Source: an uncultured bacterium (GTDB lineage Bacteria > Omnitrophota > Omnitrophia > Omnitrophales > Abzuiibacteriaceae). Taken from it: 64,000 bases of DNA. This document shows, piece after piece, positions 1-17,700 of the stretch. The stretch spans positions 42,098-106,097 of the forward strand of contig CAYLXA010000009.1 of the NCBI GenBank assembly GCA_964387845.1, given 5' to 3'. The position numbers and the translations under genes were made by a program. Below the pieces are notes generated by a model. That model made no database searches. It saw only the letters and a list, made by a program, of their open reading frames with translations, and was not told where the DNA came from. Every line of letters starts with the position of its first letter. Position 1 is the first letter of the stretch.

Positions 1-3000
1 CGTTCAGATAATCGCGTGCAAGCTTAAAATATTCGTTCTTAAAGCCCTGAAACCGCTCAAGCCAATCTGTTTGCTCAGGATCTATTTTTGAAAGCGCAAG
101 TTCGGTGGTTCTTTCCGCGTGATCAACAAGCTGAGTAATCAACGCTCGCATATCTTCAAGACTATAGGCCGTTGCGGTCTTTGAAGCTTTACTGTGTCCG
201 GCATTAGTATCTTGCGTTCCGGATTTGATTCGCCTAATTATCACAGCCGCCGCCAATCCAAGAACTCCGATAACACCGACGGCTACCTGCCCAAAACTAA
301 TCTCCGAAAAATAACCCTCAAAAGTTTCTTTCAAGCCGACGGACCGGACAATTGGCCCAAAAGCAAAAACCAGGACGCCGGCGGCAACAAACGCGCTTAT
401 CGCGAGCCACTTCGTCCGGCCGGTTAAGCTTTCAAGCGAATCCGTCCTTAATTCCGAGCGGCTACCGTAGTCGGGCCGGCTGTAAAATTGGCTCCCTTTT
501 TGATGGACCGTAAATCCAATCGAATGAATGAGTTGAACCGCTTCGCGCCGGTTAATGGCATATCCGAGATTGCTTGCTAATAAAATCACCTTATCAACAG
601 TGACTCGGCGAATATTTTTCAATTCATCTAAAACCTTTATGAAAAGATCATTCGAATTTTTCTGAGCACGTAATTCGGAGCGCGATAATTGCTCAACCGT
701 TTCCCGAACAAATTGCGGAACTTCGCCGGTTGCACGCAACAGTTCTTTTCCAACTAACGTCCGGCGATGAAAATCAGATATCGGACGGTCACTGATGGCA
801 TCAGTAAGAGCTTTAAAAAGGTTCGGATCATTTTGTTTAAGAACCTCTAAAGATTGCGCATCAACTTGCTGACGCAATTCCGAACGGTTCAGAACGGCAT
901 TGAGGACATCACGTAAATCGGAAACGGCTTGGTCGAGATTTTCGAAGTCAATTTCTTGATCAGACCCGGCGATTTTCAATTTGGAGCCGTTCACTTCACC
1001 CTTCAGTCCGATATGCCTCAAGTTGGCTTCGACCGTCCGAGCCGTCACTTCGGGATTAAAACTCGCCACTGGCGCCAAAAATTCTTTGTCACCCGCTCTC
1101 ACCTGAATTTTCCACTCCGAACCGAAGCCGGAAATCAATTCTACTTGCAATTCCGAACGTACGGATTCATTGGCCGCTTTGACAATACCCGTAAATTCAT
1201 CGGCTTTGAGACTGGCGCCGCCGATTAAGCCACCGTCAATGTTCTTCTTTGCGACCAGCGAAGCCGCATTCTTTGGATTCATACTGCCGCCGTATTGAAT
1301 ACGCAATTTGGAAGCAACATCTTCGCCGTAAATGGAGAGAACTAGAGCGCGAATATAACGCTGGACCTCATCAGCCTGTTCGGGTGTTGCGGTTTTCCCA
1401 GTTCCGATGGCCCACACCGGCTCATAGGCAATTACGACATTCGCCATTTGTTCGGCCGTTACATCTTTCAAACCTTCGAGGATTTGTTTTTCAATCACGC
1501 CAAATGTTTTGAACGCTTCACGCTCTTCCAGTAATTCACCAATCGCCAAAATCGGCTTTAAACCATTTTTGAGCGCGATTTTGACTTTGTCGTTGACGAC
1601 CGGATCAGACTCAGTCAGCCGATGATCAGCCGCTTTCTTTAAATTTCCGTGACGCCTTTCTGAGTGGCCGATAATGACATATTGAACACCCAAATCTTTT
1701 AACTGAGCATAGGATATCTGGCTCGTTTGAGCGCCCGGTTCTTCAGCAGACAGATCTTGAGCACCCAACGTAAGCTGCTTGCTACCCGGATAGATTGTGG
1801 TTTCTCTTAATCTTTTTATTTCTCTGACAACTTCATCAATATGAACAAAAGAAGGTGCGATAATAATTTCCGGGTCATTTTCCAATTGAGTATTTCCGAG
1901 GCTTACGACAATTTGCTCTGTCAAAACTTGAGCACTTATTTTATCGTTCACTGCCATCTTCCAATTGCCGCCGATGATTGGGGTGCGCTTCGCATTTTCC
2001 GCCCGCGCAAGCGCTTCGGAATCGATTTTAAGTTTTTCAATTGCTCTCTGCGCCTGAAATGAATTCCAATCATTCATGATTTCATCAAACTTTTGACGAA
2101 GCTTGGGATGCAGCCGCTCATACCGAGTCTTACCGTGAACAACCCCCTTCTCTTCAAACAGCCATTGCCGCCAACGGATTGCTTCTTTGGTAAACCACTC
2201 TAAATCCTGCTCGCTGACATCAAGCAACTTAGCTAGCGCCTCGTCCGTCATGTCAAGGCCTTCTCTACGAAACCCGTCAACTGTCGGCGTAAAACCAATT
2301 AGCATGGGCCATTTCTTAGCGTTTTTGGTTCCTCTCGGATCTTTTACGCGCTCTGATGACCATATATCACGCCGCACATTTTCCCTGAAACCGGGAAATT
2401 CCGGTTTTCCATCCGGGCCTTCTTTGAAAACGTTGTGAGTGATAAAAATAACCTCTTTCGGCTGATTCTCGAAAAATTCAAACATGTTGTTTGTGTGCGC
2501 AATTTCGTCTCCCGCTTCAAAATCACCGTTCGCAAATGGACTGGGGGTCAATGCGCCCACCGTTCCGGCTGCCGCAGCCGTCGCGGCGCTGATCATCATC
2601 AAACCATACAGAATACCAGTGGCAGTATCCGGTGCCTGTCTTAAGAAAAATCCGCCTTTCGGAAGTTTAACGCCCCATTCAACCACTTGGAAAGAAACCG
2701 GCTTGCCCCAATTTTCCGGCAAGAAATCTTTTGCATTATCCGGAATGGATACCGTAAAACGGCTGTTCGGATGTGCCCATTGAAGCGCAGCCGCATAAAT
2801 TTTCATCAGTGATTCAGCAACGTCTTCATTGATATGCGGAGAAAGTTTAATCAACCGCGATTTAGCTTCTTTTTTGTTGATTTTTTCGAGATCAAACTCC
2901 TCCAAAATCGCACGAATCGTATCGGATTTGTCCGAAAGCCAGAATTTTTCCAAATCCTTCACAGGAACAGCCTTGAGCGCAATGTCAATCCGTTTCGGGT

Positions 3001-6000
3001 CGGTCGATGACATTCCGTTCCAAACATACCAGTTTGGCTGGCCGATCGGTTTTGGCTTTCCGTCCTCTTCCAATCCTTCCCACCATTGTTCGACAACCGT
3101 GTCTGTTTCGGGGTCTAATCGGTAAGCACCGTTCGTAAAAATCGTTTTGCTGCCGGGCCCAATCATTTTCATGATGCGCGGATTGCTCTTATTGTTGGTC
3201 CCGACCAAAACGCCAAATGAACCCAGTTCGGGACTTTCTGCTTTTGGCCATCCATCTTCCGAAATCAACTCAGCCATATTAAGATCTCTAATAGGCGTAA
3301 TATAAGTTGGGTCTATGGGCTGCCCGCCTTCATCAAACAATTTGATGCCTGCCTGACCTTGAATCCAAGCAATGTCATCTCCATGAAATTCCACTTCCCA
3401 GTCTTCTTTCAAAGCATCGGGCACTTCAACAAACGCAGAATTGGTTTTTCCGACCGCGCTCGGGTAAGCGCCGAGAATACCGATCCGCTCGCCGGTCTTT
3501 TTGTTTATTAACACTTTGATCAGCATGTGTTCGGCAAGAAAATTCTTTTTCCGGAGCGCATCGTAGTTGGCTTGGCGAAGCGCTTCAAACTTCTTGCCGA
3601 AAAGCGCATTGCCGCCATATTCGGAGCCATAAGACAAAATTAACGCTTCATGCGCAACAAGAGCAAAGTAGCGGTTATCAATGGGATTTTCCTTTCGTTC
3701 GCGCTCAGCAGCTAACTTGTCCAGATCACCCGTCACATGAATGCCGCGCTCAAAAACGTATCCTTCTTTGATGGCATCCAGTGCTAATTTTCCGATTGCG
3801 ATTTTTCCTACTCGAGCCATTTTAATCATGTTGAGAGCAACGTAACGGCTATCGGTCAGCTGAATGCCGACCCGCCTTACTCCAGAATCAGGATCCGACA
3901 TCAAGTATGCAATTTTGTACATCTTCTTGCCCTTGTAGCCATCAGCCTTCATTAAATCTAAAATGGTTTGTTTCTTGCCCTCAGGGCCATCCGCCATCGC
4001 CCAATTATTGGAAGGGCCTTTGTCGTTGGAATCGTTGGTAAGCACCATCGTGCGGTTCGCTGTTCTCGCAACATCCTTCGGATGGGAGTGAGCGACATAT
4101 CTTCCGTCATTTGTTTTAAAATAGCGTCGGGATGTTTTCCCCCACTCAACTTGTTCTTCCTGGAGGCGATCTTCATCGGAAACGTCAACCCATTCCGATT
4201 CTCCCGCCCCGACAAGCTCGTGGGCATAATCAACAAATTCATGAACCGACTGAGGAACTCCTTTGAAATCATCCTCGCTTAAGTTAATCCGCAGTTCGCT
4301 GCGAGAAAGTGAAGGAATTTCACGGTCGCGGTACAAATCCAAAACATCAGACGGTTCCAATCCAAATCTTGTTATAAGAGCTGAGGCAAGCGTTCCGGGA
4401 TTCGCTTGGAGATGTTCTCTCGCTTCATTAAGCGCTCTTTCGCGCATTTCAGCTTCATATGCAGCAGTATCGCTTCCGCGGCCTCTTTGCGCATGACGAA
4501 CGGCTCTGAGTTCGCTGCGAGTCGTTAGAAGCTGATCGATAACTTCAATGGCGCTTGCAACCGTTTGAATTTTTTCAGCTTCTTCATCTGGAATTCTAAT
4601 ATCAAAGTCACCCTCTAGTGACACAACGAATTCGACAGTTTTCAACGAATCCCAATTCTCTATTAAATCTTCAAATCGAACATCATCATCAATGGGAATA
4701 TCTGATTCCAAACCGCTGATCTCTCTAAGTCGCCAAATAACTTGCCGCTGAATGTCACCGATGCTGAATATGCTTGCGCCGGCTGTGTCACCAGTGCGAA
4801 GTTCGCTCTGTTTAGCAGCGAGAGCATTGCTCGGCTCTGTGCTTTTTGCCCGCCGAAGAGAGAGACCATGCCTGTCAAGCGCGGCTGTGATTTCTTGAAT
4901 ATTCTCGACTGAAAAACGGGCTTGCCTGAGATCAGTCGCACTCATTTGGGTTAAGACGTTGACAGTCGTAACACCCTTAGTTCTTAACAGGCCAGCGAGT
5001 TTGACGGGCAAGTTTAATTGTGAAAAACGGATGCTTTGCGCAGCATTACCCCGAAGCTCCGAACGCGCAGCGGCTTTGATTGCTTCTTCCAAGAGCGCAA
5101 TGTGCTCATTGATAACGATAAACTCTGTGACTTGGAAATCCTGATCCTCCGGACTGAGCGTGGCTAAATTTTCATGCAGATAACTGACCAATTCGGCAAA
5201 CTTTGATCTCATAACTTGAAGCATTTCCTTCAGCTCTTCGGCGGAAAACCGGCTCAAATACTCTTTGTAAACGGCTTTCCGGTCAGAGGATTCAACCTGC
5301 GATTGCAACTGCGCAATCCGCATCTCTACGTTCCGGGCCAGATCTGCTGCAAAAGATTCCGGAGAAATCGGCTTATTTTCAAAAAGCACGGCTTCCATAA
5401 GCCCGCTCGGGCCTTCTTTTGTTTCCACCGTTCTTGCGTCGGCTACGACCTGATTAGAGTCCGCATGCTCAAAACCTCTCAACTGGATACCGTTCCGGAG
5501 ACTGACGCCGATCCATCCTCCACGGCCGCCGAAACGCTCGCCCATTCCATGATCCGTAAAAATAATGCGGGAATCAATTTGAAAACCACCGATCACGCCA
5601 CGTTTCTCGGCGTTTAGTTTGGTCGCAAATTCATGAAACGGCAGATGCCCGGTAAACAAACGGTTAAACCCGTTGACTTCGGCGAGTCTTCGCGCACCAA
5701 ACTTATTAATAGCAGCCGCCACATTCGGCACCTTGATCTCGGTCGTGTTGTCGGCATACCAGCTGTTTACCAAATTGAGCGCTTCATAAATTTCAGAAAG
5801 CGACGGGTTTGAGCGTATGTCGTGCGCAACAATGTCCAAGCCTTGCCAAACCGATGGATGTTCTTTGCTGCCTTTTCCTCGATATTCAATTTTCTTAGAC
5901 GGATCATCCTTGCTTCTGTAGGTGAAATAAAATTCACCTGTGCTCATATCCACCGGCAAAAACGCGTGCATATAAATATTTTGATAAGCATCGCGCTGAT

Positions 6001-8644
6001 ACAAATGAAACTGCGCTTTGAAGAAATCAGCTATCCGGTCAAGCGTGTGATTTTCCAGATAATTGGCCGAAGTCACTTTTGCATCGGCCGGCAAGTTTTC
6101 GTTCAACTCCTTGATAACCGCTGTTCCCCAATCCTTATGAAAGACCCAGTCTTTCGCCCACCACTCAGGTGACGTATAATTCTGCCGGTTAACGGCTTCG
6201 AAAACTTTTGCCCAGTCTTTGCCTTGATCCACAAACGATTGGAGGTCTTTCTTGAGTTCGGGAAGAATATCTTCGGACATCATCCGGATCGCTTCACGCC
6301 ACGCCTGATTGGACGGCAGTTCGGCATCAAAACCCTGTGCGGCTTCAATCGATGCATAAGCCTTTCTAAATCCCTCCAGCAAATCTTCCCACCAAGGAAT
6401 CGAAACGGTGCCGACCGCGCGGACTCCGGTGTAAATATCCACCAAATACCAGCCTCGGAACTGATTCCACAACCGGATCTGCTCGGCATCACCGTTCAAA
6501 CTGGCAGAAACTTGCTTGTAAAGACCGCTGCCTTCAACGCGTTTCTTGCGTTTTTCATCAGTCCATGCGCCGTTTACTTTAATTTCAAGCGTATCCCAAA
6601 ATTCTTTTTGCCGCTTTTCATGGAATGCGGTAAATTCGGCGAGATGTTCCGCCCACCAAGTTTTGGCTTTGGCTTCGGGAATTTCTTTCCGGTAGCGATC
6701 CGCGATTGCTTCTGCTTCCCGGTCACCGTAAAAATTATAGCCTTCGTAAAACGGCAAATGAAAACCCTGCAAATTCATAAACATCCACAAATCATGATTG
6801 CCCGGTATAAAATCAGACAGTCCCGCATCAATTAATTCTGCGGAACGATGAAATACTTTCACGCCGTAAGGCCCGCGATCCATCAAGTCGCCTAAATTAT
6901 GAAGGTAAATCTTGCGCCGCAAATCATCAAACGTAACGCCATGAACGGCCAGCTGGTCTTGAAGTGCTTTACTCGGATTCAATTTAAAATCTGCCGGCAG
7001 TTGACCGGGCAAAACTTGGTTGATTGCATCAACGATCAGTGCGTCAAAACGATCGATCGTTCCGTGCTGGTCCGAAATAACGGCTGCAATGGGAAAATCT
7101 CTAGACTCAGAGGGTTTTTCAAGCTGCGAAAGCAAATCAAATAGCAATTTCAGCTCTTCCTTTGACGGCATATAGGTAGTCGAAATGCTCTTTTCTCTCA
7201 GTTCAGAGCGGTTCTTACGATTGCTATTGTGATTGAGCTCAAAAATACGGTTAATCTGACCTGCAACAGTTGCAAGGTCACCCCGCACAGGCCATTCAAC
7301 TGTGACTAAGGTATCCCGCTCAACAATCGGTATCACGGAACTTCTGTGATCGCCTTTGGCTAATTGCACGCCACGAGTTTGAAGAAGAGTTGCTAAAGCG
7401 TGAGCGCTGCCTGCAAACTGAGGTTCCGCATGACCTGGAAAATAAACATCCAATCCTTTCTTCTTTAAATTTGGGATCACATGAACAGGCGCTTGATTAG
7501 AATTGACAAGGCCTGAAACTGGTAATTGGGCCGGTTGGCCAAGAGGATCGCTTGAATCGGCAACAGGAAAAGGACTATTCTTTGTCTTGGTTCTCTTTCT
7601 AAGAGCTTTTTTGCGGGTACTTGCTTCAGTTACCGAACCGCTGGCATGAGCAATCACTTCTCCGTCTTTATTATCGCGCTTCACTTCATAAAAAAGTACA
7701 TTTGTGCCGCCTTTCCGCTCAACTTTAAAAATTTGTAAGCGTATTTTCTTTCCGCGAGGGCCCACAAAGAAAACTGAATTGCGGGCGCGATTTAAGGCAT
7801 AATCTGAAATTGCTGCTTTAATTTCATCTATATACTGCTTCATATCGGCGGTTTCGGTGATGAAACTCGAAAATTCAAATTTCTGGATCTGCTGAGCCCG
7901 GAGTTCAGAGCGCAGCAGTTCGAGTGCGGTTTCGCGGGCTTCGGAATCTTGAGGGAACGCAAAGATGGTGTCCACCAAAACCAATTTTCCGTTTCGGATA
8001 TATTCCATAAAAGAATCGATTTCAGGCCCCGGGAAAACTCCTTTGTGTTCACCCAGCATGTGAGAAATGTGATGATTTTGCGAAACGCTCTTTAAACCAT
8101 TGCCGACATGGAAATGCAGGTGAGGCACTGTGATTTCCGTTCCACCGTTTACTCTCACTTTCAATTCTTTGCCCTGCCTAAAAAAGACCGTTAATTTTTT
8201 ACTGTCATCTGAACTTTCTATCGATGACACGCCGCCATACAAGAGAGCATCTTTTAATTGGGCAGACAAATTATCCGGCCATGCAATGGTTTGGAAATCA
8301 AGGGATCCCTCGCCCAAAAGGCCTCTGTGTTCTGTGGTTTGCGCTACAATTAATAGAAGCTTGTCCGCCAATTGATCCGCAAGCTGTTGGCTGAGCGGTT
8401 TATTCGGATCCAAAAACAACACTTGCCTGAGTTCGGAACGGAAAGAAGGATATTGCGCTGCAAATTGACGGAGTTCGGAAGCGGCTTTGCTCCAGACAGC
8501 GGCTAAATTGCGGACCGTAGTGGTGCCGGGCTTCGGCGCGAAAATAGTTTGCGGAATGTCCGAATATGCCATCGAACTCGAGAATGTAAACGCAAACAAT
8601 GTTGCGCTTGCCGTCATTTTGATCAGTTTATGTTTTAGATTCAT
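1..8644 (-). CDS. Giant mosaic polyprotein A. N-terminus at 8644; the gene continues past the left window edge, so it is C-terminally truncated by the window. At least 2880 codons in the window.
   Basis: ATG at 8642..8644 (revcomp of cat). Hand translation gives MNLKHKLIKMTASATLFAFTFSSSMAYSDIPQ... and stays stop-free down to position 2 in frame 2 mod 3. It contains, in order: a HIT-like HLHFHVGNG motif (~8100..8150), FBPase class 3, an RpoA alpha-CTD-like segment, an ACP-like segment, GTP-PEPCK, TIM and two C-terminal TM helices. It is absent from the ORF track only because no stop lies within the window. No obvious SD upstream. Confidence 0.75.
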   Translation of the reverse strand, partial: MNLKHKLIKMTASATLFAFTFSSSMAYSDIPQTIFAPKPGTTTVRNLAAVWSKAASELRQFAAQYPSFRSELRQVLFLDPNKPLSQQLADQLADKLLLIVAQTTEHRGLLGEGSLDFQTIAWPDNLSAQLKDALLYGGVSSIESSDDSKKLTVFFRQGKELKVRVNGGTEITVPHLHFHVGNGLKSVSQNHHISHMLGEHKGVFPGPEIDSFMEYIRNGKLVLVDTIFAFPQDSEARETALELLRSELRAQQIQKFEFSSFITETADMKQYIDEIKAAISDYALNRARNSVFFVGPRGKKIRLQIFKVERKGGTNVLFYEVKRDNKDGEVIAHASGSVTEASTRKKALRKRTKTKNSPFPVADSSDPLGQPAQLPVSGLVNSNQAPVHVIPNLKKKGLDVYFPGHAEPQFAGSAHALATLLQTRGVQLAKGDHRSSVIPIVERDTLVTVEWPVRGDLATVAGQINRIFELNHNSNRKNRSELREKSISTTYMPSKEELKLLFDLLSQLEKPSESRDFPIAAVISDQHGTIDRFDALIVDAINQVLPGQLPADFKLNPSKALQDQLAVHGVTFDDLRRKIYLHNLGDLMDRGPYGVKVFHRSAELIDAGLSDFIPGNHDLWMFMNLQGFHLPFYEGYNFYGDREAEAIADRYRKEIPEAKAKTWWAEHLAEFTAFHEKRQKEFWDTLEIKVNGAWTDEKRKKRVEGSGLYKQVSASLNGDAEQIRLWNQFRGWYLVDIYTGVRAVGTVSIPWWEDLLEGFRKAYASIEAAQGFDAELPSNQAWREAIRMMSEDILPELKKDLQSFVDQGKDWAKVFEAVNRQNYTSPEWWAKDWVFHKDWGTAVIKELNENLPADAKVTSANYLENHTLDRIADFFKAQFHLYQRDAYQNIYMHAFLPVDMSTGEFYFTYRSKDDPSKKIEYRGKGSKEHPSVWQGLDIVAHDIRSNPSLSEIYEALNLVNSWYADNTTEIKVPNVAAAINKFGARRLAEVNGFNRLFTGHLPFHEFATKLNAEKRGVIGGFQIDSRIIFTDHGMGERFGGRGGWIGVSLRNGIQLRGFEHADSNQVVADARTVETKEGPSGLMEAVLFENKPISPESFAADLARNVEMRIAQLQSQVESSDRKAVYKEYLSRFSAEELKEMLQVMRSKFAELVSYLHENLATLSPEDQDFQVTEFIVINEHIALLEEAIKAAARSELRGNAAQSIRFSQLNLPVKLAGLLRTKGVTTVNVLTQMSATDLRQARFSVENIQEITAALDRHGLSLRRAKSTEPSNALAAKQSELRTGDTAGASIFSIGDIQRQVIWRLREISGLESDIPIDDDVRFEDLIENWDSLKTVEFVVSLEGDFDIRIPDEEAEKIQTVASAIEVIDQLLTTRSELRAVRHAQRGRGSDTAAYEAEMRERALNEAREHLQANPGTLASALITRFGLEPSDVLDLYRDREIPSLSRSELRINLSEDDFKGVPQSVHEFVDYAHELVGAGESEWVDVSDEDRLQEEQVEWGKTSRRYFKTNDGRYVAHSHPKDVARTANRTMVLTNDSNDKGPSNNWAMADGPEGKKQTILDLMKADGYKGKKMYKIAYLMSDPDSGVRRVGIQLTDSRYVALNMIKMARVGKIAIGKLALDAIKEGYVFERGIHVTGDLDKLAAERERKENPIDNRYFALVAHEALILSYGSEYGGNALFGKKFEALRQANYDALRKKNFLAEHMLIKVLINKKTGERIGILGAYPSAVGKTNSAFVEVPDALKEDWEVEFHGDDIAWIQGQAGIKLFDEGGQPIDPTYITPIRDLNMAELISEDGWPKAESPELGSFGVLVGTNNKSNPRIMKMIGPGSKTIFTNGAYRLDPETDTVVEQWWEGLEEDGKPKPIGQPNWYVWNGMSSTDPKRIDIALKAVPVKDLEKFWLSDKSDTIRAILEEFDLEKINKKEAKSRLIKLSPHINEDVAESLMKIYAAALQWAHPNSRFTVSIPDNAKDFLPENWGKPVSFQVVEWGVKLPKGGFFLRQAPDTATGILYGLMMISAATAAAAGTVGALTPSPFANGDFEAGDEIAHTNNMFEFFENQPKEVIFITHNVFKEGPDGKPEFPGFRENVRRDIWSSERVKDPRGTKNAKKWPMLIGFTPTVDGFRREGLDMTDEALAKLLDVSEQDLEWFTKEAIRWRQWLFEEKGVVHGKTRYERLHPKLRQKFDEIMNDWNSFQAQRAIEKLKIDSEALARAENAKRTPIIGGNWKMAVNDKISAQVLTEQIVVSLGNTQLENDPEIIIAPSFVHIDEVVREIKRLRETTIYPGSKQLTLGAQDLSAEEPGAQTSQISYAQLKDLGVQYVIIGHSERRHGNLKKAADHRLTESDPVVNDKVKIALKNGLKPILAIGELLEEREAFKTFGVIEKQILEGLKDVTAEQMANVVIAYEPVWAIGTGKTATPEQADEVQRYIRALVLSIYGEDVASKLRIQYGGSMNPKNAASLVAKKNIDGGLIGGASLKADEFTGIVKAANESVRSELQVELISGFGSEWKIQVRAGDKEFLAPVASFNPEVTARTVEANLRHIGLKGEVNGSKLKIAGSDQEIDFENLDQAVSDLRDVLNAVLNRSELRQQVDAQSLEVLKQNDPNLFKALTDAISDRPISDFHRRTLVGKELLRATGEVPQFVRETVEQLSRSELRAQKNSNDLFIKVLDELKNIRRVTVDKVILLASNLGYAINRREAVQLIHSIGFTVHQKGSQFYSRPDYGSRSELRTDSLESLTGRTKWLAISAFVAAGVLVFAFGPIVRSVGLKETFEGYFSEISFGQVAVGVIGVLGLAAAVIIRRIKSGTQDTNAGHSKASKTATAYSLEDMRALITQLVDHAERTTELALSKIDPEQTDWLERFQGFKNEYFKLARDYLN
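190..430 (-). other. Two predicted TM helices near the window-edge end of A.
   Basis: WLAISAFVAAGVLVFAFGPIV and VAVGVIGVLGLAAAVIIRRI, preceded by SRSELRTDSLESL. Confidence 0.5.
1200..1995 (-). other. Module in A: triosephosphate isomerase.
   Basis: PIIGGNWKM (~1951..1981), IIGHSERRH, AYEPVWAIGTGKTATPEQA, YGGSMNPKNA (~1262..1295). Catalytic Asn, Lys, His and Glu are all present. It directly follows PEPCK with no RSELR between them. Confidence 0.9.
2030..4288 (-). other. Module in A: GTP-dependent phosphoenolpyruvate carboxykinase (PckG type).
   Basis: VARTANRTMV, then LAEHMLIKVLINKKTGERIGILGAYPSAVGKTNSAF (kinase-1a, compare FPSACGKTN), then EFHGDDIAWIQ. Preceded by RSELR at 4289..4303. Confidence 0.8.
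4289..4303 (-). other. Example RSELR site in A (codons CGC AGC GAA CTG CGG).
   Basis: Plus strand ccgcagttcgctgcg. Reads ...LSRSELRINLSEDDF at the N-terminal boundary of the PEPCK module. In frame with A. Confidence 0.9.
4540..4700 (-). other. Module in A: acyl-carrier-protein-like domain retaining the DSL phosphopantetheine-attachment serine.
   Basis: ENWDSLKTVEFVVSLEGDFDIRIPDEEAEKIQTVASAIEVIDQL. The ACP signature DSL-x-x-VE-L-x-x-x-L-E-x-x-F-x-x-x-I-P-D-E-E-A is present. Flanked by KQSELR and TTRSELRA. Confidence 0.6.
4870..5045 (-). other. Module in A: RNA polymerase alpha C-terminal-domain-like helix-hairpin-helix segment.
   Basis: FSQLNLPVKLAGLLRTKGVTTVNVLTQMSATDLRQARFSVENIQEI resembles the RpoA alpha-CTD (LELSVRSANCLK...GKKSLTEI). 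Confidence 0.35.
5070..7190 (-). other. Module in A: fructose-1,6-bisphosphatase class 3 (Bacillus Fbp type, metallophosphoesterase fold).
   Basis: Motif LGDLMDRGPYGVKVFHRS encoded at ~6868..6895. FIPGNHDLWM follows downstream. The block is about 700 aa. It is bounded by RSELR at ~7196..7210 and ~5052..5066. Confidence 0.55.
8534..8644 (-). other. Leader of A: Sec-like signal or leader peptide of the conserved family.
   Basis: MNLKHKLIKMTASATLFAFTFSSSMAYSDIPQTIFAPKPG. First RSELR at about residue 67. Confidence 0.6.
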
Positions 8645-8651
8645 GTTTTTA

Positions 8652-8679
8652 GTGATAAGTGATAAGTGGTAAGTGGTAA
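8652..8679. repeat. Four tandem heptamers in the 75-nt B-A spacer: GTGATAA x2 then GTGGTAA x2.
   Basis: Read directly: agtgataagtgataagtggtaagtggtaag. On the coding (minus) strand this is CTTACCA CTTACCA CTTATCA CTTATCA, ending about 10 nt before the A start codon. Confidence 0.7.
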
Positions 8680-8702
8680 GCAACTTAAAACTTACCACTT
8701 AC
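8669..8702. promoter_or_regulatory. Perfect 12-bp inverted repeat with a 10-nt loop between the stop of B and the start of A.
   Basis: gtaagtggtaag (8669..8680), loop caacttaaaa, cttaccacttac (8691..8702). The left arm overlaps the heptamer repeats. No U-tract follows on the transcribed strand, so it is not a canonical intrinsic terminator. Candidate RNA processing or regulatory stem, or a protein-binding site. Confidence 0.5.
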
Positions 8703-8719
8703 AACTTACGACTGAAAAA

Positions 8720-11700
8720 TTATGCGGCGCGTCCCAATTCGATAACGTTACGCAGTTCCGATCTTAAAGATTCCGCAATTTGAGTAATACCAAACGCATT
8801 AAACAGCGCCTTGACTTCGCTCCGGCCGACAAACACAACCTGGCTTGCATAACGCTTCAGCATTTCGGCTGACGTTGCGTCACTTTCTTTTGAAGCAATA
8901 ATCCTGAAATTCTTGGCACCCAATTTCCGAAGTTCTGAGCGCGCCTGGACAAAATCGCGCACAATCACAAAACGGTCTGAGTTTACATCCGCAACCGCGG
9001 CCCGGATGGCAGTTTCGCTGGCCGGATCAAGCGCAATGAGCGCCGTCGGATCGGCCGAATTTTCTAAAATAATCGGAAGTGCCCATAAGACATCCTCGTT
9101 AATCAAAAGGCCTTCTGTCAGAATATTACCGACTGCCGTTTCTACCCCGGCGCCATCCTGCGCTTGCATAAATTGACGAATAGCCGCTTGAGGTTCTTCG
9201 CTTCTGGCACGGGTAAACTGCCTCCGGCCTGCTTCGACTTTCGACCTGATTCGTGTAGTAACGGCCGCAGGAATCATGGAAGACGTATCCAACGAGCCAA
9301 ACGCAGAGCTCGGAACCGCAGTCAATCGCAATTCGGAACGGGTTTCTAGTTTCTGGTTTTTAGTTTCTGGTTTAAACTTGAAACTAGAGACTAGAGACTC
9401 GAAACTTTCCTTACGAAGTTCGGAACGCTCCCACTTACCCGTCTTTTCAAGCGTGTGCTGCGCAATTGCGTGTTTAGTTTTAATCAAAGACCCCAGATCA
9501 AGTTCAAATTCCGAGGATGTTAAAGTATATGTACCCGAAAATCTGGATTCCAATTGCTGGATGCGTTCCACACCTTCCAGAACCAAAACTTTTGTCATGT
9601 TCAACTCATGATCAGACTCAAGCCCGAGATCGATACGATGTTGGGTCCTGTTCACAACCGAAACGAGCGCAAAAAGTTCCGAGACCATTTTCCCGAATGC
9701 CATAAAATAGCTTTGAACTTCTTTCTTATCTTTGATGGCTTTTGCCCCGCCAAACCGTTCTATAAGTTCTTCGCCGGCTTTTTCAACCAAAGCTGATACG
9801 TTCCAAACAATTTCCCAATCACGCTGAAGCGGGCTTTGGTCTGGAATATCCCAGCCTTGCAGCAATTGACGGTCATTCTTCCACACTTCGGATTCCAAAT
9901 ATTTGAGTACTGCCGATGCAATAACTTGCGAATAAAGGATTTCGTTGGCGCCTTCAAAAATCGTCATGACACGGGCATCCGCGTTAGTACGGGCGACTTG
10001 TTCTTCAACCATAAACCCCGCACCGCCGCGTTTTTGAACCGCTTCACTTGTCAAACGGTTCAGAACTTCAGAGCCCCACGCCTTCGCGGCCGCAGCTTCA
10101 AGCCCTGGTTCCGAAACACCGCCGTCAAAAAGCCCGGCAAGTGAATAGCTAATAGACTCAAGCGCATAGGTGTAAGCTTCCATGTCTGCAAGCGTTTCCT
10201 GAACAGCGCCCCAATTGGCGAGCTGCGTACCGAACTGTATGCGATCGAGCGACCAATTTAAAGTTCTTTCAAATGAACGGAGCGCACCGCCCCAGCTTCC
10301 GGCTGCGACCGCCGTACGGCCGTGATTGAGAATCGACATGCCGATTTTATTGCCGTCGCCCAATTGGCCGAGCAGATTTTCCTTCGGAACCCGCGCATTC
10401 TCAAAATACACATCGACAGTCGAAGAACCATGAAGGCCTGTTTTGTGGTAGTCGTTGCTGATGGAAATGCCTGCCGCTTTGCGTGCTTCCGCATCCTTCG
10501 GGAATTCAACGATAAAAACACTCTTCTCGTTTTCACCCGTCATCGCAAATACGGTCATAACATCCATGAAACGGCCGTTTGTGATAAACGCTTTTTCGCC
10601 GGTAATTTCATAATATTCTTCACCGGTCGTTTCATCTTTTTTGAGCACCGCTTTGGTTTTTAAAACCGATTCGCGGTTTAAGCTGTCTGAACCATGCGCG
10701 GTTTCAGTCAACGCGTAAGCGCCGATCCATTCGCCGGTCGCGAGTTTCGGCAGGTATTTCCGCTTTTGCTCTTCCGTTCCGAATTTCACAATCGGAAGCG
10801 TTCCGACACCGCCATGAACACGAACGAGAGAACCCACCGACGGATTGGCATACCACGCCCACATATCTGCCAGTGTTTTCATAATCTTTTTAAAGTTACC
10901 CAACCCGTATTCTTCGGGAACTGACATCCCCAGCAAGCCCATCTCTCCTGCCTGCTGCAAAATGCCGCCCTCATCCTCAACTTTGACAGCGCCGCTATCA
11001 ATCTTTTCGCTTTCCGGAACTACCGCGCTCTTGAAGAAATTGGCGATGGCTTCATTCATTGCATTGATTTCTTCATGACCGGCTAAATCTTCCGGAAATT
11101 GGAGCGTGCCTTCGGCCACATTGGCGCGGCCATATAATAGGAAGTCGCCGGATTTGGGCGTACTTTCGGCGAACGGTACCAGTGCTTTGTCATTCTGAGG
11201 CGCAGCCGAAGAATCTACGGTCGCAGATCCTTCGCTTCGCTCAGGATGACCGGCTTTTGCCTTATCCAGCACTTCTTTTTCCATCGCGTCCATCATTTTC
11301 AGAGTATTGGCGCGAATCAAAAGAGCGTTCTTTCCATTTCTTGCTTCATAGGTAACGGGAACGATCGGCAGTTTTTCACGCGTGACTTTGATTTTGTCAG
11401 CCGCGGGAGCAATAGCGCGGATGTCAATCACATCGCCCGGACGGATGTCATGATTAAAAGTAGCCAGATCGGTCACATTCAGTAATAAATGACCGGGAAC
11501 GGCTTCCGCAGACATCCTGGCCGCTACTTTAATGGCTGCAAGAATATTGACAAGTCTCGGATCATTTGATTCGGCAATCACGCGTACACCGTTTAAATAA
11601 TCTTCCGTAACCGTTACGGGCAGAAGGCCGCTTGGATTTTCATTTGGCGATGACGTATCTTGAATGCGCGGGCTTGCAGAATCCGTAAAATCAAATATCT

Positions 11701-14700
11701 GCTTCGGAACCGAGTGCGTAACACCTTCGGACCATGCTTTCGCCTGATCGATTTGCGATTGGGTGGGTTTTGAAGTATCAAACGGCTCATCGGCCGGCCT
11801 TGGTTTCATATTGGCAACGATTTCTGCCACCACTTTCCCGGCTTGATTAACAACCTGAATCTTAAGCTTCGCGACACCATTTTCAGAAATACTCATGACT
11901 TCAATGACCGGTGTCACCACGTCGTCAAACTTCACGGGCGCTGAAAATTTCGCGCTTTCTACCGCACTACCCTCATCTCCGATGCCGATAAATTCATACC
12001 CGGGAAGCTCTTCCTGGGTACGGGCCAGCATTTTAGAAACCGTCAGAAGGCCATGTGCAACCAGAGCGCCAAATTTGGACGCTTCCGCGTATTCTTTGAG
12101 TAAGTGGAAACGGTTGCGGTCGCCTTCCATCGCGAAGAGCTTGACCATCCACTCGCGCATGATGAGCGCGTTTCCGAGAATCTTTTGGCCGGCGAATACG
12201 GAAAGTGCGTTGTCTTCCGTGCGCCCGCCCGGACGAAGCGCTAAGAGAAGTCTTGCGCGCGCCTTTGTATAACGTTCTTTTTCGGCATCGCTCAAAATAC
12301 CAGGGATTTTCATGGCGCGTTCCATTTGGATAAACGGAATGCGCGCGGATGCAGCATCTACGATTTCAAGCGCGCCGGTCACAGGATCTTTGAATCCGAC
12401 AGCGCCAAGGCCGCGGTCTTGATCGGCAACGGCGTAATCTTCGATAATCGCAAGGTCGCGCTCAGTTGAATTTTTCCATGCTTTTGCGTACGCTTTGCCT
12501 GCATCACTCTTGAGCCATTCTTTCTTGGCCGCTTTGCCTTCATCCGTTTTCAAATCAAATACGGGCATCGCACCGACCGTGTCAGCGCGTTGCGGACTTA
12601 ACAAGCGGTTAATTTCATCAACTTGATTGGCTTTTGCAAGTTTTCCCGCGAAACCCCAATTGGCGACACGTTCCGCTTCATGCGTTACATTTTCATCACT
12701 GGAATAACCATCGATCGCGTCAATTTTTGAATATGCCGTGAGAGCAATAAAAAGTGAGTGATAATAATTGTAACCTTTCGTTGTCGGATCATCTTCGGCC
12801 TCATGAACCATATTGCCGTCAACATCGAAAATCGCGGCCGTTACGCGGCGGCTTGCACGCATGATCGACTGCGTTTCCGATTCCTCAAACGCTTTTGCTT
12901 CTTGTTCGATTGCTTTAGGGTCAGAAATGCTGGGTACAATTTCAAACCCTCCCGTGAGATATCTATAATCATGTTCAAACTCGGATAGAAAACCGTCTAG
13001 CTCTCTGATTTCTTTTGCGCTTTGTGTGTTTTGATACACAATACCCGTAACAGAGGATGCGAGTAATGGGAAAATATCCTTAAGTCTTTCGATTGGATTT
13101 GACTTTGCAGTTTCAATCCAAATAATCTTTTCATGCTCGCCCGGGAGCATCAATCCTTTAAGTTTTTGTATAGAATCCTTGAAAGAACCGTCTTGCCACC
13201 ACGAAGCCGGTGCGGAATCTAAATTGATTTTAATGATATCCACCTCTGAATTCATTGCTATATTCAGAGCTTCATAGTCATTTACGTCAACACTTACGAT
13301 TGATCGTGCCAATGACACATCGCGCGGAACGAAAACTTCGGGCGGAAGAATAGGTTTGCTGTCGGCTGCCATTTTGTCGAGATCGGCCAGTTTTATTTCG
13401 GGTAATTTTTTGTAATCGTAATCCGGATGTTTGCGGATGACAGGCGGAAATTGGCCGAGGAATGGCTCCATTCCCTTCAAGTGGTTCGGATGAACGCTCC
13501 ACTTGCGGTTCATGCCGATCTTGATAAATTTTTCTGTGTCGGCTGTGGTCGGCTCAACTTCAAGTTTCACGGTAATGCCGGTACCCGCCACTTTTCCGGT
13601 TTTCTTTCCGGCTTCAACGATATCGAGAAGCGCTGAGCGCATATACGGAAATTGCTCATGCTGCACTTCATTTTTCCCGCCGGTTGCGGCTGTGTAATCG
13701 ACAACGCCAAGCTGTGCTTCTTCTACTTCCGGAGCAATTGATAAAATCCGTTCAGCGTTCAAAGTTCCACCGGGAAGTTCTGTGAGCACAAATACTTTAT
13801 GAGAACCGACGGGGCGATTGACCCATTTTTGTTCGGCTTGAATCGCACGCAGATTGGCAACACCGATGCGGACATCCTGCGGGCCGAATACTTTCGGCAT
13901 ATAAATACCGTCTATCAAATGGCCGATGGCGCGAAAGACGATGGAATAATCGCCCGCGGACCACTTGGTGCGCAGATTGTTCGGACGGAACAGAATCATC
14001 TGGTCTTTATGGAAACGCGCTTCTTCTTTTAATTGGAAGCGTCTATTGCGCGAATGAATCTCATCCCACTCGTCTTCTGACAACATCCGGTAATCCGAAT
14101 AATCGGTGTCATCCGGCAATTCAATAAGATATTTGTCGATCGGATCTTTTTCGTCGTTGGCCTGCAAAGCATTCTTTTTCAAGAAATCAACTTGCTCTTG
14201 TGTGAGGATTTCGCCCTTGAACAACCGGATCAATTGAATAATGACTTCGCGCGCAAGTTCCTTGCGGATGGTCGCTACGGCATCTTCCAAATCTAATAGA
14301 AGAATCGGAGCCTTCATGCCCGCGCGTGCGGCAAGCAGCATGAATTTCCAGTTATCACCGGGAAACACATTTTGGACTTCGCGCGGCATGTACTCCCACG
14401 CAAGCCGTGCGGCAACTTCATCAGCCGTCACATCGGGCTTCACGACTTTCCAATTTTCGTAGCGGTAATTGAGGTCTTTCACGGCATGAGCTTCATCATT
14501 GCCAAACGCGGTCAGCAATGCCTGCTTCACTTCCGCATTCGTCACTTGATCGAGCGAAATTTCCCGTAATTCGGAACGGACAAACTCGGGGCTCTTCAAT
14601 CTGTTGCGGTCAATTTTTTGAAGGTCGCCGGTGCGCGGAAGTGAGGAAACAATCACAACCCGCTTGGGTGCTTTGTAATGGGCAAGTGACTCTTTTGCGG

Positions 14701-17700
14701 ATTCAATAATCTCTTCTTCCCTGCCTTTTAATGCTCCGAACCAGGCTTCGGTGACAAAAGCAACCACCACTTCATCAAAATGGCCGACCAATTCGGCAAA
14801 GTCATCATCGGAAATAACGCCGGCCTCGCCGTGAACAACCTGATCAAAATAAGCAGGATCGTTGATTCCGACGACTGCAACTTCATTGACACCCTGAAAA
14901 TTAGAAATTACCTTTTCCACTTCGCCCGGATTTACATTTTGGCTGCCGGTGATAATGACGTTTTTCGTACGGCCGGTGATGGTCACGTAACCTTCGGAAT
15001 CTATTGTCGCCAAATCACCCGTACGGACCCACGTCAGGCCGATTTTTTGAGTTAAAGCCTCTTTAGTCGCTTTCGGATCATTCCAATATTCCCTCATCAC
15101 TTGCGGAGCCGAAACAATAAGCTCGCCTTCCTGACTGCCTGCAATGATGTCCCAAGTTCCCGGCTTCACAACACGCGCCACAACATCACGGTTTGGCTTT
15201 CCAACCGTTCCGGGTTTTTCGGCGTTAATCGGGTTCGTGATGGTGCTGGTGGCTTCGGTTAATCCGTAACCTTCGATCAAGCGCGCGCCGGTTGCTTCTT
15301 CAAACGCACCTTTTACTTTTCCGAGAGCGGAACCGCGGCTTAGACCGATCAAGCCCGGAAATTTCCGGCCTGATTGCGCCAGCGAATGGAAAATTGCGGG
15401 AACCGCAAACAACAACTTCGCGTTTGATTCGGCCAGCGTTTGCGCCAAGCCGTCTACAAATGATGCGGAAGTTTGATTATAAGGAAGGCGGGGCGCGAGA
15501 ATAATCGGCCGGCCTTGAAGCATGCTCGCAAACACCACATGCGTTCCGTAAGTTTTCGGCTGTAAAGGAATCACGGCCGGTCCCGGCTCAACATCCTTCA
15601 GCCAATCCTGATATTGTCCGAGCGTCGCTGCAATATTCGCATGCGTCTGTGCCACAATTTTCGGAGTCCCCGAAGTTCCGGTCGATGGTGAAAGCTGCGC
15701 AATATTTTTTTCATAAACCGGCCTTCTGGAAGGAGCGCCGTTCGTGGGCGTATTAAAAATGTCATCGAGCACTTTCGCGGTTCCGTGGCGTAGTCTATGT
15801 TCGCCCAAATCAGAAACATAAATCCTTAAATTCGGGAATTCCTGAACAATATTTCTCAAATCATCTTTGCGGTAATAGTCAGTCAAAATCACCAACGCTT
15901 TTGCGCCGGTTTCTTTGAGATGGCGGACGATATCACTGCGGTTCCACAAAGTTTCAAACGGAACACGGACGGCGCCTGCCCGCCAAATCCCGAGGTCGAC
16001 GGCAAGATCATAGGCCGAATTCGGCATCATGACGGCCACGCGGTCGCCTTTTTCAATTCCCGACCGAATGAGCTCTGCGCTGAACCGGCCGGCCCATTGG
16101 CCGAGCTGTTCGTATGTTATAGATTGATTTTCCATCGGAACCACGGCAGAAGCGCTTCTGGCCAGCCGGATGGTTTGCTTCGGATATTTTTCTATCGCAT
16201 CGTCAATCATTCGCACAATGTGGTAATTGCGTGCTTCAATTTCCGATGTCACCTGCGCTCGCATTGATATAGTTGCGTGATCAGGTACCATTGGCGATGG
16301 ATTTAAATCGAGGTCTTCCATATTAACCGGCTGCGGCGCATCCGAGACCCACTCTAAGAGCGAGCGCGGAATTGTGACGGAGTAGCGATCCGCAACTTCT
16401 TGAACCAGCGACAGGACACCTGCGGCGCCGATCTCGGTCATTTGCTTAAAAATGCCTTTTTCCCATTTGAACGCGAGCCGGACGGCAACGTCGATGCCCT
16501 CTTTGGCTTCTTCGGGGCTTTCAACATCCAGAATGGCATTTTCATCGATCAACTGCCATGCCACCAAAAATACGCCGCCCAAAATAAAATCACGGACCGC
16601 GCCCACAACATTATTCGGAAGCGTTTCGCCCGCGGAAAACTCAACTCTTCGGGCTTCATTAAATTGAGATTCAAAATCAAGCAAAGACGGAGAGGGCGCA
16701 TAAAATTGATCCGGATACGCGCTGTGCAGAATTCTTTGAGAGTTTGCCACAATGTCAGGCGCAATGTACTTCGCGACAAGCTCTGCCGCTCCTTGTGCGG
16801 CGCCGAGCGCCATTTTGAATGCTTCGTCAATGGTCGCGAAATTCACGTTTTCCATATTAACGCCGATGCCGCCCAAAATGGTTGCCGGAGCGCCTTCATC
16901 CGCGATCCGAAGCGCGTGATTGAGCACGGGAATAATCAAACGGCTTGTCACAAACCCCGGCTGGCTTTTTACGACAATGGCGGTTTTTCCGACCGTACGC
17001 ACGAACATTTTTGCGCGCTCGACGGTTTCCGGCGAAGTTTCTCTTCCAACCACAATTTCGACCAATTCATTCACGTGCGCAGGAAGCTGAAAATGAATGC
17101 CGATCACATATTGTTTCCGCTCGGCACTGACCGCTTCGGCAAGCTCTTCAATCGGAATCGTCGTGGTGTTGGTGGCTAAAATCGCACCTTCTTTCGCCAG
17201 CTTATCCAATTGCCTAAAGAGCGCCTGTTTCACGGCTTTGTCTTCAACCGCAGCTTCTATAATGATACCTTTTGAAGCCACTGCTTCCGGCAAGCTGGTG
17301 CCATAATCCAACAAGTTATCGAGCTGGCCGAGCTGGGCTTCCGATAATTTTCCATTTTCATGGGCTTTTCTAAAGCTATCTTGCAAGGTTTTCTGTGCCT
17401 TTTGAATCATTTCCGGTGAAATATCATAAAGCGACGTCCATAATTCGCCGTTCTGTGCGGCGACTTGCGCAATCCGCGATCCCATCTTCCCCGCGCCCAA
17501 TACTGCCACATAATTATCTTCATGACGCGAGCGCAACTCGGAGCGCGGCATTTGGACGAGCTCGGTGAGGACTTTCTTGCCGCCCTGAATGGAAACAAGC
17601 GTGAAGAAAACGGTCGTGCCGTTTGCTCCGGGGCGCGGCGCTTGGTCGACTAATATGATTCCGGAAGTTTTGCTTTTGGCGGCTTCAACGATGTCTGCCG

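Follow-up and report, generated by a model that had tools for sequence, protein, structure and literature searches.

Whether the giant proteins encoded by Omnitrophota persist as single chains or are cut up is a recognized puzzle. Cleavage of these proteins has been proposed, with the cleavage points stated to be unknown (West-Roberts et al. 2023, bioRxiv 10.1101/2023.11.21.568195), and a 2026 preprint (“A complete-genome view of phylum Omnitrophota”, 10.64898/2026.06.07.730766) predicts that multi-enzyme giants of the phylum possess a signal peptide and transmembrane (TM) segments, with the enzymes facing outward. As judged by term searches, neither report mentions a boundary motif, a leader conserved between proteins, or a C-terminal domain that they share. 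The present analysis concerns a 64,000-nucleotide stretch of DNA (hereafter the window; contig CAYLXA010000009.1, positions 42,098 to 106,097) from an uncultured bacterium of this phylum, the minus strand of which is almost wholly occupied by five tandem, co-oriented giant open reading frames (ORFs A–E; Table 1), and specifically the domain found at the C-terminal ends of ORFs B–E. As in the published giants, these are very long ORFs with a signal-like N-terminus, interspersed TM helices, and many unrelated metabolic Pfam domains, and the phylum is the same, as indicated by a relative of the domain (P0006) and by named homologues of the neighboring gene C2. In contrast, the complete ORFs in the window are smaller (2.6–5.7 kaa, i.e., thousand amino acids) and contain acyl-CoA, methylmalonyl-CoA, and glycolytic enzymes, whereas the content of the published giants is HEAT repeats, glycosyltransferases, and dockerin.

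The best overall explanation for this C-terminal domain (hereafter the tail), with a probability of roughly 0.6, is that it serves as a non-catalytic terminal module of multi-enzyme giant proteins punctuated by the peptide motif RSELR. In the grammar of these proteins, a hydrophobic leader is followed by repeated units of RSELR with an enzyme or TM-hairpin cassette, and finally by RSELR, a linker, and the tail. Viral polyproteins (e.g., with picornavirus 3C or potyvirus NIa sites) are similarly encoded as one long ORF with unrelated units, a short boundary motif with unconserved flanks, and rearrangement of cassettes. In contrast to these, the present locus belongs to a cellular bacterium with housekeeping cargo, its cleavage is putative, the motif is also found inside a folded domain, and the cargo is framed by a hydrophobic leader at the N-terminus and a domain at the C-terminus, both of them constant and neither of them known from viral polyproteins.

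Relatedness of the four tails and the terminal cassette

A sequence-only reading of the window had claimed that the last ∼150 amino acids (aa) of ORFs B, C, D, and E are related, pointing to a stretch (8723..9300, minus strand) that comprises the final 192 codons of ORF B and to three others that are the ends of C, D, and E. When the last 150 aa of each were compared by Smith–Waterman alignment against 500 shuffles, high scores were observed for B with D (z = 28; 33% identity over 167 aa) and for C with E (z = 14; 25% identity over 141 aa). The C–D score (z = 4.5) was matched by 2 of 500 shuffles and was higher than the score of any of 291 internal 150-aa windows taken from the remaining giant ORFs, D–E reached z = 2.8, and B–C and B–E remained at shuffle background; alignment of a BD profile to a CE profile by hhalign was marginal (E = 0.029). 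Taken alone, the window thus appears to hold two clear pairs with a weak bridge between them, and a single family is not secure on these data.

The profile of the four tails, searched exhaustively as a hidden Markov model (HMM) against 1.84 billion representative proteins, matched eight of them, consisting of E, D, and C of the window, four true relatives (P0005, P0006, P0007, and P0008), each matched at its extreme C-terminus, and one repeat artefact. P0004, a Calx-beta repeat protein matched in 12 short stretches, was rejected as a family member. Nine independent tails from other samples were collected from the contigs of the relatives and from loci anchored on C2, and an HMM of those nine tails, containing no window sequence, was searched over the ∼20,500 aa of window ORFs. 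The best match of this leave-out HMM in each protein was at the C-terminus and in register for E, C, B, and D (E-values of 8e-29, 1.4e-24, 1.2e-5 at aa 5573–5701, and 3e-3 at aa 2489–2580, respectively), and HMM searches detected no internal copies of the tail domain in the window ORFs. Because the leave-out HMM matches all four C-termini in register, the four tails are homologous and make up a single domain family, within which B and D form a divergent subtype, as the sequence-only reading had proposed for their relatedness.

That the likeness of the tails might instead reflect composition or a chance periodicity of secondary structure, with no shared domain, would fit the background scores of B–C and B–E and the marginal E-value between the BD and CE profiles. 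Against this, the window-free HMM matches the four C-termini and nothing else in the ORFs, the B–D and C–E scores lie far above their shuffles, and nine more proteins, from other samples, terminate in this domain; a merely compositional similarity is refuted by the leave-out search, and its residual probability is negligible. A genuine single domain family, forming a constant end cassette, is very probable. This family is very rare, with seven true matches among the 1.84 billion representatives. Word-indexed protein searches returned no relatives either for the D tail alone or for an 11-tail alignment, and relatives were recovered only by the exhaustive HMM search. The named relatives of the tail family are from Omnitrophota, and a scan of genome contigs located P0006 in Candidatus Omnitrophica bacterium CG11_big_fil_rev_8_21_14_0_20_45_26.

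An RSELR-like motif is found 179–213 aa from the C-terminus in all 13 tail-bearing ORFs with upstream sequence (200–213 aa in 10 of them), where the distances for E (206) and for the related protein R1675 (194) were counted to RSELR and not to the nearer RSELH or RAELR. The tail is therefore itself a cassette, the constant last one, of fixed length. The sequence-only reading had placed a final RSELR usually 10–20 aa before the stop, which is the case only in B and D (two of four), but its description of the ends as RAA, RSA, or SRA was accurate (RAA, RAA, RSA, and SRA in B, C, D, and E) and extends to a terminal Ala in 13 of 13 collected tails, the sole invariant column of the alignment. The FDEGL segment that it reported in C and E is likewise present, and FDEG recurs in relatives, while B, D, S1889, and R1675 lack it. 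In three proteins (B, C, and P0008), the motif at the opening of the tail cassette, or immediately ahead of it, has the extended form RSELR-x-(D/E)-x-(F/Y)-E-S-(L/W), which hints at a longer conserved element ahead of the tail.

Fold of the tail and possible ligand binding

The pattern of short alternating strands described in the sequence-only reading agrees with the strand/helix alternation in a structural model, although the strands it had quoted as equivalent are not (RFVIV and KIMIV correspond to strand 3, RIAFVV and RIGFV to strand 2). An AlphaFold2 (AF2) model of the C tail, built from an 8-sequence alignment, reached a predicted local distance difference test score (pLDDT) of 80.4 and a predicted template modeling score (pTM) of 0.73, with all five models at a pLDDT of at least 75. 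Its topology is (beta-alpha)x5 followed by a 33-residue terminal helix. Modeling from the four window tails alone gave a pLDDT of 55.7, with the same topology for the D tail at low confidence, and was not used for fold searching. The model indicates a Rossmann-like three-layer alpha/beta/alpha sandwich, a resemblance of fold class and not of family membership; the suggested Rossmann-like fold was therefore recovered at that level only, and the suggested STAS domain was not, with neither a SpoIIAA-like fold nor a Pfam STAS match. Foldseek with the C-tail model returned nothing at E ≤ 1e-3 in PDB or BFVD, and tail sequence searches of Pfam, NCBIfam, and PDB returned nothing significant.

The best structural neighbors of the model were amino-acid kinases, HAD phosphatases, universal stress proteins (USPs), and S-adenosylmethionine methyltransferases. 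Since these alpha/beta domains handle nucleotides or phosphate, and since the semi-conserved FDEG directly follows strand 1, the usual ligand-binding position in Rossmann-like folds, the tail could be a cryptic enzyme, or a small domain for ligand binding or regulation, that senses a nucleotide or metabolite and tunes the attached enzymes. However, a P-loop and the HAD DxD motif were found in none of the 13 tails, and GxGxxG and the USP ATP motif (G-x2-G-x9-G(S/T)) in only one tail each. At the place of HAD motif I, DxDx(T/V), the segment is S-L-x-F-D-E-G, which B and D do not conserve, FDEG is absent from the four proteins named above, and no polar residue is invariant. Unlike generic Rossmann-like domains (e.g., the amino-acid-kinase N-lobe, the HAD core, or USPs), to which it shows 6–15% identity with no signature motif conserved, the tail also has an extra terminal helix of ∼30 residues and no enzymatic context. 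A ligand-binding or enzymatic role is on this evidence rather improbable. The lack of a conserved polar or nucleotide-binding residue would instead argue for a structural module, and the tail is probably non-catalytic, as far as can be judged from its sequence. The tail constitutes a new, previously undescribed, clade-restricted domain family of about 145 residues.

RSELR boundaries, cassette exchange, and leaders

RSELR occurs 51 times and RSELH three times in ORFs A–E, in coding frames only. No two of the 54 sites share a 15-mer, and Ser and Arg are each encoded from both of their codon families, so that selection acts on the peptide and not on the DNA; a DNA-level repeat was rejected on the same grounds. 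No conservation was found in the flanks of the motif. RSELR is placed between Pfam domains, typically 10–15 aa before the next domain, and in the Omnitrophica CG11 metagenome-assembled genome RSELR-like motifs number six in P0006 and zero in ∼20 kb of neighboring ordinary genes. The motif thus marks cassette boundaries across whole proteins, in addition to opening the tail cassette, a role overlooked in the sequence-only reading, where RSELR served only as a landmark. A short recurrent motif at the boundaries of functional units, as in a polyprotein, is present in these ORFs. No peptidase Pfam domain was detected in A–E at E ≤ 0.01, and the only match for “RSELR” in the literature was the R package varSelRF.

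Comparison of window proteins with those of two related organisms by BLASTP identified blocks of homology (Table 1), and an RSELR-like motif is present no more than 16 aa from each of the 8 block ends. The unit composed of MeaB, mutase, and B12 domain is a separate ORF with its own leader and tail in loci L001/L008 but is inserted between two cassettes of C in the window, and cassettes are therefore mobile, with a leader and a tail retained by every translation unit. The exchange of cassettes between ORFs takes place exactly at RSELR, and leader and tail stay terminal. The conserved head and tail with variable cargo between them, proposed in the sequence-only reading, is accordingly an accurate description, with cassettes in different ORFs in different genomes. 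The tail ends every complete leader-bearing ORF seen, i.e., those of the window, L001/L008, L009, and P0006. The sole apparent exception is an in-frame TGA (L008 4791..4793) that lies between an 868-aa ORF with a leader but no tail and a 1675-aa ORF with a tail but no leader, and that could represent read-through, recoding, a sequencing error, or a fresh pseudogene.

Further arrangements were observed among the relatives. Two adjacent leader-plus-tail ORFs in L009 (254..5920, 1889 aa; 6161..9841, 1227 aa) match exactly over their last 150 residues and almost exactly in the regions next to the leader, which suggests a recent duplication or gene conversion of end cassettes. P0007 (L011 138..605) consists of 155 aa, namely a hydrophobic N-terminal segment and the tail domain, on an 891-bp contig, and may be a free-standing tail gene or an assembly fragment. 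A more distant Omnitrophota locus, L015 (1..20768), contains a C2 homologue (34% identical) between an 11,572-aa ORF and two leader-bearing fusions (PFK; PPDK with PGK), with PilZ genes alongside. No RSELR enrichment and no detectable tail were found there, and extension of the tail family to the L015 fusion proteins was rejected (E > 1 with the tail-alignment HMM). Because L015 has leader-bearing fusions beside a C2 homologue but neither RSELR nor tail, the leader–RSELR–tail grammar looks like a clade-specific elaboration of a wider Omnitrophota habit.

The presence of both end elements on every ORF however the cassettes are partitioned also raises the idea that head and tail dock successive polypeptides end to end, assembling the five ORFs into one ordered membrane-bound metabolon. 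Docking domains of polyketide synthases and nonribosomal peptide synthetases (PKS/NRPS) likewise cap multi-enzyme polypeptides of variable modules with conserved N- and C-terminal elements. The tandem, co-oriented arrangement of the ORFs, the B/D-like and C/E-like tail subtypes, which could encode pairing specificity, and the weak coiled-coil-type PDB sequence matches of the long terminal helix would fit such an arrangement. In contrast to PKS/NRPS docking domains, which are short helical peptides, the head here is hydrophobic and resembles a signal sequence, unlike a soluble docking helix, and the tail is a full globular domain. Moreover, P0006 is a lone leader-plus-tail protein in an ordinary neighborhood, with no partner ORF within 10 kb. 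End-to-end docking is very unlikely.

All five ORFs start with one conserved hydrophobic leader of the form ...LLVLTFSFTNSIAYSD, ending (A/G)Y(S/T)(D/E), and the same leader is present in relatives. Its features are a K/R-rich start, a hydrophobic core of ∼19 residues (Kyte–Doolittle 1.7–1.8 for C and D), and A-Y-S before D/E; searches of Pfam, NCBIfam, and PDB with the leaders returned nothing significant. Many RSELR motifs also have a TM helix or TM hairpin 10–25 residues downstream (examples in Table 1), and thus some cassettes open with a membrane anchor. ORF B has no hydrophobic segment apart from its leader.

The cargo of the giant ORFs, as identified by Pfam scans, consists of intact cytoplasmic central-metabolism enzymes in series. 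Catalytic signatures are intact (GHSERR and EPVWAIGTG in triosephosphate isomerase [TIM], DxHxxG in the B12 domain, and the P-loops of MeaB), and the enzyme cassettes look active on this basis. The giant ORFs were rejected as an artefact of stop-codon reassignment, which adds apparent stops under table 11 and never removes them, and the enzyme domains are intact and in frame.

N-termini that resemble Sec signals (basic n-region, hydrophobic core, A-Y-S|D site), combined with a tail at the extreme C-terminus of every member and its invariant small-residue/Ala end, are features in favor of the tail as a C-terminal export or sorting domain, in the manner of type IX C-terminal domains (CTDs) or type I signals, by which the giants would be delivered outside the cell or into prey. 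Catalogued sorting domains (type IX CTD, type I, and PEP-CTERM-type signals) are similarly conserved at the extreme C-terminus of unrelated large proteins with an N-terminal signal-like segment. The outward-facing enzymes predicted in the 2026 preprint and the view that Omnitrophota are host-dependent or predatory are consistent with this possibility. However, the tail is a ∼145-aa Rossmann-like alpha/beta domain and not the beta-sandwich of type IX CTDs or a TM-plus-basic tag, it has no Pfam or NCBIfam match to a sorting signal, and no resemblance to a known secretion, sorting, or encapsulation signal was seen. Pfam scans detected no secretion genes inside the window cluster, and no cognate sorting genes were seen there. 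Moreover, the cargo enzymes require ATP, GTP, CoA, NAD, FAD, B12, and biotin, ORF B lacks any TM segment besides its leader, and if RSELR is cut the tail would be parted from almost all cargo. Cytoplasmic cargo dependent on such cofactors (B12 mutase, ATP-dependent carboxylase, acyl-CoA dehydrogenase, phosphoenolpyruvate carboxykinase [PEPCK], and TIM) is therefore a poor fit with simple export, and an export role for the tail is unlikely. The sequence-only reading went on from the architecture to propose cargo that is packaged or secreted, a step that the present data neither bear out nor refute.

Table 1. Features of the window and of related proteins. Nucleotide coordinates are those of the window and aa positions those of the named protein.
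Feature	Coordinates	Strand	Details
ORF A	2..8644	minus	>2880 aa; C-terminus past window edge, tail unseen; 9 RSELR; leader, metallophosphoesterase, carrier-protein-like domain, PEPCK, TIM (Pfam)
ORF B	8720..25876	minus	5718 aa; 8 RSELR, 1 RSELH; leader, 3-hydroxyacyl-CoA dehydrogenase x3, methylmalonyl-CoA mutase, acyl-CoA synthetase, HpcH-type lyase, MaoC hydratase, acyl-CoA dehydrogenase, tail (Pfam)
ORF C	26148..39689	minus	4513 aa; 8 RSELR; leader, AprA-type methyltransferase, TM region, MeaB x2 with methylmalonyl-CoA mutase and B12 domain, methyltransferase, biotin carboxylase with carboxyltransferase, P-loop domain, tail (Pfam; cassette mapping to R2454 and R1918)
ORF D	41289..49076	minus	2595 aa; 12 RSELR; leader, several TM hairpins, Glu/Leu/Phe/Val dehydrogenase, tail
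ORF E	49365..63677	minus	4770 aa; 14 RSELR, 2 RSELH; leader, RidA x2, UDP-glucose pyrophosphorylase-like domain, HEAT repeats, phosphoglucomutase, tail
C2	39676..41250	minus	524 aa (TTG start); own signal-like N-terminus; between D tail and C start
Tail alpha/beta domain, B	8723..9160	minus	aa 5573–5718; ends GRAA; divergent; RSELR-like motifs inside two helices
Tail alpha/beta domain, C	26151..26606	minus	aa 4362–4513; ends TRAA; query of confident AF2 model
Tail alpha/beta domain, D	41292..41729	minus	about aa 2450–2595; ends LRSA; divergent, B-like
Tail alpha/beta domain, E	49368..49829	minus	aa 4617–4770; ends LSRA
Terminal cassette, B	8723..9340	minus	206 aa; RSELR at aa 5513, ∼60-aa linker, tail domain
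Terminal cassette, C	26151..26789	minus	213 aa; opened by RSELR at aa 4301
Terminal cassette, D	41292..41918	minus	209 aa; opened by RSELR at aa 2387
Terminal cassette, E	49368..49985	minus	206 aa; opened by RSELR at aa 4565; additional RSELH at aa 4615
RSELR opening tail cassette, B	9326..9340	minus
RSELR opening tail cassette, C	26775..26789	minus
RSELR opening tail cassette, D	41904..41918	minus
RSELR opening tail cassette, E	49971..49985	minus
Extended RSELR element, B	about 9379..9426		aa 5484–5499
Extended RSELR element, C	about 26742..26789		aa 4301–4316
Extended RSELR element, P0008 (L006)			aa 193–205
Leader, A	8558..8644	minus
Leader, B	25778..25876	minus	MKMKNSPAKSVQKIISAVLVLTFSFTNTIAYSE
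Leader, C	39591..39689	minus
Leader, D	48993..49076	minus
Leader, E	63591..63677	minus
TM after RSELR, A			aa 2747–2821
TM after RSELR, D			aa 196–260, 647–718, 1600–1630
TM after RSELR, E			aa 100–128, 408–445, 1902–1929
Homology block, C/R2454			C 92–754 = R2454 460–1116
Homology block, C/R1918			C 1112–2646 = R1918 82–1692
Homology block, C/R2454			C 2988–4068 = R2454 1100–2202
Homology block, E/S1889			E 1192–1743 = S1889 100–645

The proposed mechanism and gene C2

In the terminal-module reading, RSELR would be a recognition mark, most simply a protease site, and the ORFs would then be polyproteins, from which a protease reading RSELR would release the cassettes, the tail included, as separate proteins. 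Cleavage at RSELR is conceivable at somewhat below even odds. The tail would be a terminal handling module that marks and holds the completed C-terminal end of a very long chain for assembly or for the RSELR-reading machinery, possibly serving as proof of finished translation on chains of several thousand residues; this specific role in completion, docking, or assembly is put forward tentatively. A fuller version, in which core catabolic and glycolytic enzymes are made as membrane-targeted polyproteins, RSELR is cut by a dedicated protease (possibly C2), and the tail is an obligatory last product or a docking site that licenses processing of fully translated chains only, is more speculative still.

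C2 starts 38 nt downstream of D and overlaps the start of C by 14 nt. Exact-sequence look-ups recovered a 522-aa version of C2, which places the window sequence in Logan run SRR15237813, but neither the 524-aa TTG-start product nor D. Its 86 identified homologues are unnamed or, with one exception, labeled Omnitrophica/Omnitrophota. Among 40 homologues, H72, E100, R119, E152, R437, and GGFH465 are invariant, with QDAH as the first motif. The window protein matched PF04187 (ChaN/Tiki superfamily) at 18.9 bits, below the Pfam cut-off of 27.7 bits, and weak matches to this family were found in 8 of 40 family members (best 9.5e-6); comparison with PDB sequences, Pfam, and NCBIfam returned nothing significant, and a profile scan of genome contigs with the C2 alignment returned no match. 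As in the Tiki/TraB/ChaN superfamily, C2 has a C-terminal GGFH of the GxxH type and invariant His, Glu, and Arg residues. In contrast to that superfamily, its first motif is QDAH and not GxxH, and a ∼250-aa helical insert separates its two halves. On these sequence features C2 could be a hydrolase and is a candidate processing enzyme. Its identification as the RSELR protease is weakly supported, because every ORF in the cluster ends in a tail and distant homologues are found in ordinary contexts; on the same consideration, the observation that C2 always follows a tail was rejected as a specific tail–C2 link, since any gene inside such a cluster follows a tail.

Several observations weigh against the terminal-module reading or its mechanism. 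RSELR-like motifs are found within folded helices of the tails themselves (B aa 5646 and 5705, D 2586, E 4670, and three in R1675); located at helix starts, they imply that not every copy is a free cleavage site, are awkward for a model in which every RSELR is cut, and would fit a helix-start or docking motif equally well. Leaders resembling Sec signals precede a cargo that depends on cytoplasmic cofactors, which presents a topological paradox. Distant C2 homologues are found in ordinary contexts as well (L013), as noted above. With regard to the structural model, the alignment comprised only 8 sequences, the last ∼25 residues have a pLDDT of about 60, and the B/D-type tail was modeled poorly (pLDDT 55.7). 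Rossmann-like folds can accommodate ligand binding or a cryptic enzymatic activity, and a 13-sequence alignment limits how far either can be excluded.

With regard to the surrounding sequence, no Rfam families were found in the window, and no promoter-like or terminator-like site was found in the 271-nt gap between C and B. In L001, a 118-aa bAvd/23S-rRNA-IVP-like four-helix-bundle gene (2005..2361) lies between the C2 homologue and the next polyprotein and is absent at the equivalent window site. Genes of the bAvd type are accessory genes of diversity-generating retroelements.

Considered alone, the tail is a modest find, a new family of domains; in combination with the leader and RSELR, it defines an undescribed and experimentally tractable grammar. 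For the giant proteins of Omnitrophota, the locus supplies this grammar in concrete and testable form, namely a leader, a peptide-level boundary mark, mobile enzyme cassettes, and an end domain of ∼205 aa, and the tail HMM provides a practical marker of where these proteins end. Should RSELR prove to be a processing site, such proteins would be divisible into functional units in silico, and a new cellular route to fixed-ratio co-expression of pathway enzymes would be indicated. If the enzymes are indeed exported, this would represent a surprising mode of host or prey manipulation. If the polyprotein reading is true, these ORFs would be the first case of a cellular organism producing its central-metabolism enzymes as polyproteins and would yield the first cleavage map for Omnitrophota giants.

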